Of a DNA stretch of 5,392 bases, positions 1-2,096 are shown one piece after another. Position 1 is the first letter of the stretch. Each line of letters begins with the position of its first letter. The notes under the pieces are model-generated. The model did no database searches, was not told the DNA's origin, and saw only the letters and a program-made list of their open reading frames with translations. The stretch lies in IMG/VR virus record IMGVR_UViG_2724679140_000006, one strand, 5' to 3'. The position numbers and the translations under genes are program-made. Origin of the DNA: a virus (lineage: Duplodnaviria; Heunggongvirae; Uroviricota; Caudoviricetes).

Positions 1-70
1 TTATCAGTTACAGGAAAACATGACCAGAGTATTCCGAAAAAGAGAATAATCAATAAAATATTGAAAATAC

Positions 71-193
71 ATGGTGCCGGGTGCCTCCCGGTGAATTCTG
101 CAATGACCAGACAGAATCCGCAACTTGCCTATACGATAACGCGACCAAACATCTGTCATTATGCCCCTCCGCTCATGAGGATTCACCATGCAG
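71..193. repeat. Copy A of a structured direct repeat: 25-nt 5' box, divergent hairpin-containing core, 15-nt 3' box
   Basis: The 5' box ATGGTGCCGGGTGCCTCCCGGTGAA (71-95) is identical to 985-1009, and the 3' box GGATTCACCATGCAG (179-193) is identical to 1073-1087. The 5' box contains a GGTGCC direct repeat and a CCGGG/CCCGG hairpin, and the CATGGTG/CACCATG ends are inverted complements. The core is different in sequence from copy B but forms its own hairpin (ATTCTG 95-100 with CAGAAT 112-117). Weaker shared boxes continue to about 257. Strand of any RNA product is unknown. Confidence 0.8.
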
Positions 194-389
194 TACTCTT
201 TTAACAAACTCCCTGCAAGCAGGACAACATTCTGCGTTCTGAGTTGTGTGGAATTTAACACTTCACACCTGTGTGCATTTTCTGCAGGCTGATACCAGCT
301 CCACAATACATCGCAGGCAACAGAAGCCAAATACCCCACCACAGAAAAAACATGCAATTATGATTATTGTTTACTGCAAAGATGTAGAA

Positions 390-877: not shown

Positions 878-935
878 ACAGCGAATCAGATCAAATAAAA
901 CGCACATTTGTTAACATTTACACAAAGTCTGCGTG

Positions 936-956
936 GGATATTCTGAAAGAATATCC
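936..956. promoter_or_regulatory. Perfect 8-bp inverted repeat GGATATTC-TGAAA-GAATATCC, possible operator
   Basis: Exact dyad symmetry seen directly, about 60 bp upstream of the -35 of the lipoprotein promoter. No U-run on either strand, so it is not an intrinsic terminator. Confidence 0.3.
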
Positions 957-984
957 ATAATGTGGAGAGAATCTATTGAAGTGC

Positions 985-1087
985 ATGGTGCCGGGTGCCT
1001 CCCGGTGAACAAAACGTTCGTGATACCTGTCGGCGACAGAAAAGGTTAATGGTATCACCCCACCGCACAGGGGGATTCACCATGCAG
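985..1087. repeat. Copy B of the structured direct repeat (same 5' and 3' boxes as copy A, different core)
   Basis: 5' box at 985-1009 and 3' box at 1073-1087 are identical to copy A. The core forms an 8-bp stem (GTGATACC 1020-1027 with GGTATCAC 1051-1058) enclosing a small hairpin around 1027-1039. Upstream ATTGAA and downstream boxes CAAACTCaCTGC (1100-1111) and GAGTTTGTGGcATTTA (1144-1159) are also shared with copy A. Confidence 0.8.
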
Positions 1088-1406
1088 GAGTTTTCTTAGC
1101 AAACTCACTGCGCGCCCGGCAACTCCCAACCACATAAAATGCGGAGTTTGTGGCATTTATGCATATAACTCGCAGGAATTATCTTAAAAAACTGATGTCG
1201 ATCCGGATTAAAAAGAAGCAGGTCATCATCAGATGACTGGAAAAAAGGAAAACAAAAAATACTCATCATACAGTTTTGATTGCAGGGATGAGCCTGCTAT
1301 GCACAATATGCAGAATATAAGCAAGATAAAAATATGCAGGCATATTATTTCGGATTTTGTTATTAACACAACCTTTTTAATAATCATTTGGCATACAATA
1401 AACCAG

Positions 1407-2020: not shown

Positions 2021-2096
2021 AGGTGGCCCTTGCTGGATTTGAACCAGCGACCTGGCGATTATGAGTCGCTCGCTCTCACCACTGAGCTAAAGGGCC
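2021..2096 (-). tRNA. tRNA with CAU anticodon, ileX/ileZ-like (probably tRNA-Ile2; tRNA-Met not excluded)
   Basis: Reverse complement is GGCCCTTTAGCTCAGTGGTGAGAGCGAGCGACTCATAATCGCCAGGTCGCTGGTTCAAATCCAGCAAGGGCCACC. Strong resemblance to E. coli ileX as recalled. Anticodon loop CTCATAA. Only CC of the 3' CCA is encoded; the next base is T. Confidence 0.75.

Follow-up and report, generated by a model that had tools for sequence, protein, structure and literature searches.

The DNA analysed here, referred to as the window, is a stretch of 5,392 bases with 100% identity to a lambdoid prophage carried by IGC_EcoliInv_1.1, an E. coli strain from mouse (NZ_CP054665.1). All of its genes lie on the minus strand, and in the NZ_CP054665.1 annotation the holin and lysis genes follow past its left edge, in agreement with a first-pass annotation that had taken the minus strand as the direction of late transcription. 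Read in this direction the order is a DUF1133 gene with some likeness to antiterminator Q, tRNA genes, a first repeat (copy B), a TolA-like moron, a second repeat (copy A), a third (copy C) and then the holin and lysis genes (Table 1). The isrK, C4 and ORF6N set directly behind the DUF1133 gene corresponds to the isrK/anrP/antQ-type module of Gifsy-1 in Salmonella. The tRNA at 2022-2096 (minus strand, anticodon CAT) is called Met by ARAGORN and Ile (lysidine-modified) by RefSeq. The TolA-like ORF is a typical moron in that it has its own promoter-like site (TTGAGC-18-TATAAT, 877-848, minus strand), and its product could interfere with Tol-dependent phage or colicin entry; in strain ECCWS199 a second gene with a TolA C-terminal domain lies behind it.

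Table 1. Annotated features of the window, with the strand on which each is read
Feature	Positions	Strand	Description
hok/sok	5385-5060	minus	type I toxin-antitoxin; hok Pfam HOK_GEF 6e-22; sok RNA 121 bits
DUF1367, YbcO nuclease, DUF1133 protein	4620-3168	minus	DUF1133 weakly similar to antiterminator Q
isrK, C4 antisense RNA, ORF6N antirepressor	3148-2336	minus	isrK 74 bits; C4 75 bits; c4-a1b1 target site
four tRNA genes	2096-1787	minus	Met/Ile-Arg(TCT)-Thr(TGT)-Gly(TCC)
box 2, copy B	1144..1159	minus	TAAATGCCACAAACTC; ~60-75 nt 5' of predicted proximal start
distal -10-like ATAAAT, copy B	1155..1160	minus	preceded by TGC; poorer than copy A; putative
proximal promoter-like site, copy B	1093..1121	minus	TTGCCG (1121-1116)-17-CTAAGA (1098-1093); predicted start G 1084; weak match
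box 1, copy B	1100..1111	minus	GCAGTGAGTTTG; inside the 17-nt spacer of the proximal promoter-like site
STnc100 copy B	929..1115	minus	core from GCAUGG 1084 to closing stem CACCAUGC 990-983
TolA-like lipoprotein ORF, 142 aa	818-390	minus	TolA C-terminal domain, Pfam 2.9e-23; between copies B and A
distal -10-like TTAAAT, copy A	253..258	minus	TGTTAAATT; reads as an extended -10 (TGn + TAAATT)
box 2, copy A	241..257	minus	TAAATTCCACACAACTC; two substitutions relative to family consensus TAAATNCCTCACAATTC
proximal promoter-like site, copy A	198..226	minus	TTGTCC (226-221)-17-TTAAAA (203-198); predicted start G 190
box 1, copy A	205..216	minus	GCAGGGAGTTTG; inside promoter-like spacer 204-220
STnc100 copy A	21..220	minus	core from GCAUGG 190 to closing stem CACCAUGU 76-69

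Between the tRNA cluster and copy B we observed a promoter-like AAGACA-18-TATAAT with a perfect -10 (1492-1463, minus strand), followed about 20 nt on by a strong terminator (1435-1416 and a T-run). The ~50-nt transcription unit that would result (1492-1408) has no Rfam match. In E. coli ECCWS199 (locus L267) the distance from the DUF1133 Q-like gene down to this block is ~360 nt, and by analogy with StxS in Stx phages the unit may be a late promoter with a short terminated leader. Lambda 6S RNA, and StxS from PR', are constitutive short transcripts of the late region that are read through once Q is active. A similar role as Q-dependent late leader was considered for STnc100, copy B of which follows the Q-like gene in a simpler relative, and was set aside because the separate promoter and terminator unit at 1492-1408, the better late-leader candidate, intervenes. 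The copies differ from 6S and StxS in that here they are not directly behind the Q-like gene, and there is no sequence similarity.

The two repeats are copies of an already catalogued prophage small-RNA family and not a new sponge RNA. Comparison with Rfam by cmscan matched both to STnc100 (RF02076) over the full model (positions 1-206), copy A with 105.3 bits (E 5.2e-23) and copy B with 86.4 bits (E 3.7e-18), the gathering score being 47 bits. In both copies the cmscan alignments and the minimum-energy folds have a closing stem, GCAUGGUG/CACCAUGC, which encloses a CCCCC...GGGG and a CCGGGAGGCACCCGG hairpin, and both lie where STnc100 elements are expected, in the late/moron region of a lambdoid prophage and in late-gene orientation. 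The terminator part of the model aligns poorly in copies A and B, a terminator scan found no rho-independent terminator on the minus strand at 1-100 or 880-980, and the hairpin of copy B at 958-936 has no T-run, so that it is not a canonical terminator. Membership in STnc100 was retained despite the missing terminator because the score and the core agree with the family; stand-alone sRNA status is nevertheless doubtful, and copies A and B may make no discrete sRNAs. The first-pass annotation had read short shared boxes trailing the repeats as a possible multicopy prophage sRNA element. Such an element stands, as STnc100 on the minus strand, and the separate trailing module does not.

Copy C (L001 8758-8965, minus strand, 102.6 bits) lies ~55 nt beyond window position 1. 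It has a proper rho-independent terminator, followed by a convergent terminator (L001 8727-8751, plus strand), and its closing stem carries a compensatory change, GGCG/CGCC (AUGGCG/CGCCAU). A small ORF at the ATG of GCATGGTG was considered and treated as non-coding, as its frame and length vary among copies. The ATG-GTG-AAT-CC frame opens at the conserved GCATGGTGAATCC (window 973-1083 and 4-190, both minus strand), and it is probably non-coding because its length differs widely, with 36 aa in copy B against 25 (Sp4) and 11 (Sp5) codons counted by eye, and it is preceded by no Shine-Dalgarno sequence. High ribosome coverage has been reported at one STnc100 copy of strain EDL933 (PMC5331693).

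STnc100 began as a purely computational candidate from the Salmonella Fels-1 prophage, with no reads and unprobed (Sittka 2008 supplement), and the boundaries of the Rfam family trace to computational prediction. RNA-seq reads map to all eleven copies in enterohaemorrhagic E. coli (EHEC) EDL933, and a northern blot confirmed one of them (PMC5331693). In O157 Sakai, EcOnc27 (= sRNA103, downstream of stx2B) and EcOnc04, EcOnc05 and EcOnc06 are Hfq-crosslinked members (PMC4104026 supplement). A link between STnc100 and PasD of enteropathogenic E. coli (EPEC), with a common origin, has been proposed (bioRxiv 10.64898/2026.05.13.724894). The evidence for an expressed, Hfq-associated RNA comes from EHEC and EPEC relatives. 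The identification is of minor importance for the window, since annotation with Rfam or Bakta would suffice to name both repeats STnc100; the useful remainder is a conserved block of ~75 nt 5' of the core, for which a promoter, a second start or a leader is possible.

Two short boxes within this block are shared by copies A and B, as had been claimed, with small corrections of their coordinates (Table 1). Box 1, CAAACTCNCTGC (CAAACTC-N-CTGC), matches nowhere else in the window on either strand; 0.01 matches were expected by chance, and none of 200 shuffled sequences had two. The end of box 2, GTGGNATTTA (GTGG-N-ATTTA), matches only at 248-257 and 1150-1159 in the window, compared with 0.10 expected by chance, and two matches arose in 1 of 200 shuffles. 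In the orientation of the window the whole of box 2 reads GAGTTGTGTGGAATTTA in copy A and GAGTTTGTGGCATTTA in copy B; on the minus strand the two forms are 15/17 identical with a 1-nt indel. Boxes 1 and 2 are 29 nt apart in copy A; in copy B, where 8 extra bases separate box 2 from the remaining block, they are 37 nt apart. Outside the boxes the copies are ~73% identical overall, and because of this and the unequal spacing of the boxes we regard them as conserved islands and not as traces of a recent duplication. The boxes had been described as trailing the repeat, which is the wrong way round: on the minus strand they stand 5' of the structured core, in or just upstream of the putative promoter region. 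Box 1 corresponds to positions 5-16 of the Rfam STnc100 model and box 2 lies ~30-45 nt 5' of its first position.

The 84 bases around the boxes of copy B (1088-1171) contain five instances of the pentamer GAGTT/AACTC, alternating in orientation, and over the whole window its count is 20 against ~10 expected. On minus-strand RNA the alternating set permits several mutually exclusive hairpins.

To collect homologues we scanned IMG/VR for the invariant 3' hairpin of STnc100 and sorted the 70-odd distinct elements by their 5' flank, which gave three flank types. Type ii, the flank of most elements including both window copies, is a block of ~75 nt 5' of the core, present in >30 distinct homologues and made up of TTAAAT, CTCACAATTCAG, TTGAC/GTTGTCTG, GAGTTTGTTAAAAG and GCATGG, laid out as (TG)TTAAAT-N3-(C)TCACAATTCAG-N4-TTGAC-N-GTTGTCTG-~12 nt-GAGTTTGTTAAAAG-7 nt-GCATGGTGAATCC; ~30-45 nt of it fall outside the Rfam model. 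At least 35 distinct homologues from IMG/VR prophages have it 5' of GCATGG. Their alignment is near gap-free, and TCACAATTC, TTTGTTAAAA and the TTG of GTTGTCTG hardly vary in it. The second flank type, that of PasD and many others, is TTGAYT-N17-TTAAAA, and the third is TTGACC-N18-TAACTT at an equal distance from GCATGG. Box 1 of copy B is the counterpart of the family block GGGGAGTTTG, immediately 5' of TTAAAA. The boxes are thus family features, a conserved 5' module of STnc100 genes, and they are not confined to the pair in the window: the copy B form recurs unchanged in 28 further IMG/VR prophage contigs, in every case ahead of an STnc100 core. A scan of genome contigs added few informative loci, its matches being mostly by chance and in unrelated phyla, and a look at the DLP12 prophage of K-12 for a mapped relative (IpeX) turned up no useful annotation.

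The window copies resemble the STnc100/EcOnc family in score, closing stem and hairpins, in late orientation, in moron and tRNA neighbours, in the presence of several copies per genome, and in the 5' block with its boxes, which most members share. They differ in having neither the terminator of the model nor a convergent partner of the AgvB/AsxR type directly behind them, and in the wording of box 2, which reads CCACA(C)AACUC in place of CUCACAAUUC. PasD1 and PasD2 (EcOnc13, EPEC E2348/69) have a related core that RF02076 scores at 38-41 bits, below threshold. Their -10-like TTAAAA stands at an equal distance from GCAUGG; their flank, TTGACT-N17-TTAAAA, directly follows a DUF3927 gene and has no box 2, and they possess a 3' seed UGUGAG and a terminator, both of which the window copies lack. 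Neither UGUGAG 5' of a terminator nor a TTGAYT-N17-TTAAAA flank was found in the window copies, the flank of which is type ii.

We think it probable, with some reserve, that the boxes are part of a promoter/leader 5' module of STnc100-family genes. A sigma-70 score profile over 71 distinct members with four kinds of 5' flank has a single clear peak (4.8, with a background of ~3.0), at which the -10 hexamer ends 6-7 nt ahead of the G of GCATGG, and the near-invariant TTG of GTTGTCTG and TTTGTTAAAA are as expected for a -35 and a -10. The same G is the 5' end of PasD2 (NC_011601 741157) as estimated by RNA-seq (Pearl Mizrahi 2021 table S6). Box 1 occupies the -10-proximal half of the 17-nt spacer of this promoter-like signal. 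Copy C, with a 5' flank of TTAAAT-CACATTTT and without the AACTC/GAGTTTG boxes, has TTGTCT-17-TATCTT at the equivalent position, with another -10 wording. A generic promoter scan called neither proximal site, in copy A or in copy B, and the -10-like elements TTAAAA and CTAAGA are without the usual T at -7. Judged from sequence, box 1 would lie within the spacer of a family-wide proximal sigma-70-type promoter, from which RNA is predicted to start at the G of GCAUGGUGAAUCC (190 and 1084). Box 2, ~55-75 nt 5' of this predicted start, would belong to a second family-conserved block in which TAAAT is followed by a CA-rich stretch, and the profile has a small secondary peak, also family-wide, at the TTAAAT of box 2. 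Its most likely role would be either that of a distal start, giving an RNA ~55-60 nt longer at the 5' end, or that of an upstream control site; in copy A the distal site would start RNA at ~248-245, within the CA-rich tract. Both boxes would then act in cis on expression of the sRNA, and possibly on its 5' end, and would not be a trans-acting sponge site.

To ask whether the boxes are transcribed, we took the length from GCATGG to the terminator end as the predicted size of Sakai elements and compared it with the northern sizes of Tree et al. For elements with the PasD-like flank the predicted and observed sizes are 173 and ~187 nt (EcOnc13), 159 and ~177 nt (EcOnc06) and 192 and ~222 nt (EcOnc04), an excess of 8-16% (n=3). 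For elements with the type ii flank they are 154 and ~222 nt (EcOnc05) and 170 and ~235/247 nt (EcOnc27), an excess of 38-45% (n=2), so a longer transcript may take in the boxes. A start ~7 nt past TTAAAT (TGTAAT in Sp5) would give 208-213 nt for EcOnc05 and 224-229 nt for EcOnc27, a good fit. Extension at the 3' end to the hairpin of the adjacent convergent sRNA would give ~195 and ~203 nt, also within the observed error, and because both extensions fit, the northern sizes are ambiguous as to the 5' end. We consider the chances for and against a 5'-extended form in type ii elements to be about equal. The probe listed for EcOnc13 in the Tree 2014 supplement does not match Sp3; its match is to the block upstream of another element.

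In a different reading a longer STnc100 isoform would start just past TAAAT with the boxes as its 5' end, and this CA-rich end would offer a GU-rich Hfq-dependent sRNA a seed or sponge site. The northern sizes of EcOnc05 and EcOnc27 are consistent with such a start near the CTCACAATTC box, and the extended -10 of copy A coincides with the minor promoter-score peak; 3' extension explains the sizes equally well, and the distal start has no conserved -35. The pairing that this reading needs was examined as duplex energy against the R1 seed of GcvB (gcvB sequence), compared with shuffles. The box of copy A, CACACAAC, can pair with R1 at -14.3 kcal/mol, but 19% of shuffles were as good. For box 2 of copy B the energy was -10.2 kcal/mol (52% of shuffles as good) and for the family consensus -7.9 kcal/mol (62%); the pairing is absent from both. 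The 5' region of AgvB reached -16.9 kcal/mol (2.4%). Family members do not keep the CA-rich tract letter for letter; their consensus, as above, is CUCACAAUUC. The first-pass annotation had read the CA-rich tract as a target of GU-rich seeds; with GcvB R1, pairing is at the level of shuffled sequence, and we find this isoform reading fairly unlikely.

Nor did the locus turn out to encode a known prophage sponge RNA, as had also been suggested. AgvB and AsxR of EHEC share this genomic setting, with the late promoter on one side and the lysis genes on the other, and AgvB acts through a CA-rich CACAACA that mimics GcvB targets. Both are RNAs of 51-60 nt, convergent to STnc100 and with a conserved 42-nt 3' domain, features that the window lacks. 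In Sakai, AgvB and AsxR lie convergent to and directly behind STnc100 copies; a layout of this dyad kind, in the form of a convergent terminator, is seen next to copy C, and not behind copies A or B. The AgvB and AsxR covariance models (RF02702, RF02703) gave no match at E<=1 in the window and scored 88.1 and 96.5 bits on the Sakai Sp5 and Sp17 loci used as positive controls. The conserved 3' domain (...TTGCCCGAACCCAYTCGGGC and a U-run) had no match in the window with up to 3 mismatches, and the GcvB target-mimic motif CACAACA was not found there. A GcvB sponge was rejected on the duplex energies relative to shuffles, on the missing CACAACA, and on the missing AgvB/AsxR models and 3' domain. 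A CRP-type site at TCACA was also considered and dropped, as the spacing of the half-sites is wrong and the window copies read CCACA.

The PasD seed UUGUGAG (E2348/69, L122 ~1290-1300), the RIL-seq target motif of which is CUCACA, is exactly complementary to CUCACAA, the most conserved type ii 5' box (Sakai Sp5, L144 893-952). The match counts for the longer isoform in the family, but it does not apply to the window because both copies there read CCACA. An extended form of this idea, in which other sRNAs dock on the type ii block, transcribed as the 5' end of the long isoform, and different copies titrate different regulators, seems to us highly improbable. If it were true, the complementarity of CUCACAA and the PasD seed would amount to sRNA-to-sRNA cross-talk between prophages, and the variant box of copy A would sample the GcvB R1 seed instead.

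The boxes could also act as the arms of an RNA hairpin, with AACUC of box 2 pairing with GAGUU of box 1 in a long isoform or in late read-through and serving as a 5' stabiliser or processing site. In copy B, CAAACTC is the exact reverse complement of GAGTTTG, and in copy A AACTC is that of GAGTT; in 29 homologues AAUUC/GAGUU and CAGRC/GUCUG are paired in 83% of cells, compared with 27-54% when the register is slid. All three states, U-A, U-G and C-G, are retained, and the covariation score was reached by 1 of 500 shuffles; the tested structure, however, was derived from the same sequences, and the changes in the outer helix are one-sided. The version in Sp5 (the stx2 phage) folds as a long hairpin with z -2.9, and copy B has z -2.2, but RNAalifold gives no consensus structure, copy A has z +0.64, and 16 diverse leaders range from -2.5 to +1.6, with only one below -2 and with differing structures. 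In addition, the minimum-energy fold of copy B pairs box 2 with another GAGUU (1125-1121), and the register varies between subtypes. RNA pairing between the boxes is possible in these models, with weak support, and the hairpin as an account of what the boxes do is in our judgement improbable.

As DNA, the boxes might be sites for a regulator of the sRNA promoter, an alternative that the first-pass annotation had named and that may hold for box 2. Candidates include a host factor, the DUF1133 protein with its likeness to Q, and the repressor of the prophage. The positions of the boxes, about -50 to -75 for box 2 and the spacer for box 1, are typical of operators and activator sites, inverted repeats surround TTAAAT in several homologues, and ChIP-exo signal for RpoD and RpoN has been reported at Salmonella STnc100 promoters (PMC10794520). 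The alternating GAGTT/AACTC series around copy B and its excess over the window would also fit. Against this, the distance from box 2 to the -35 is 13 nt in one copy and 21 nt in the other, and a difference of 8 nt would break helical phasing; the commonest family state, AATTC...GAGTT, is no DNA palindrome; and no candidate protein or known operator consensus matches. We regard such sites as putative and this reading as distinctly unlikely.

Least persuasive, and very unlikely in our view, is that the islands are boundary sequences kept by homologous recombination that shuffles morons among lambdoid prophages and have no regulatory role of their own: STnc100 copies do flank the TolA-like moron here and lie between stx2B and an esterase gene in Stx phages, an identical unit of copy B and moron occurs in different backbones, and the 5' flanks, of at least three types, form a mosaic, but boxes of 12-17 nt are too short for efficient homologous recombination, the far longer conserved core would serve better, and the strong column-specific conservation (TTG, TTAAAA) fits a promoter.

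The promoter/leader reading has a bearing on Stx2 phages. The strongest reported predictors of haemolytic uraemic syndrome (HUS) in these phages are polymorphisms at +90 and +103 after stx2B (PMC12711010). These HUS-linked variants fall in the same zone of the Sp5 copy, beside box 1 and around the -10-like TTAAAA/TTTGTTAAAAAAATTTCG, and whether this zone is promoter or RNA would decide how they are to be read. The EcOnc27 and AsxR coordinates of Tree et al. 2014 use NC_002695.1, and are ~137 nt lower than those of NC_002695.2. Placed by the AsxR match and the northern probe (NC_002695.2 1267500-1269500, L144), the Hfq cluster of EcOnc27 covers the last 80 nt of STnc100 at its 3' end, which are +201 to +280 counted from stx2B. 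The cluster excludes the +90/+103 stretch, which corresponds to the putative promoter/leader zone, and EcOnc27 may have been drawn too close to stx2B in PMC12711010.
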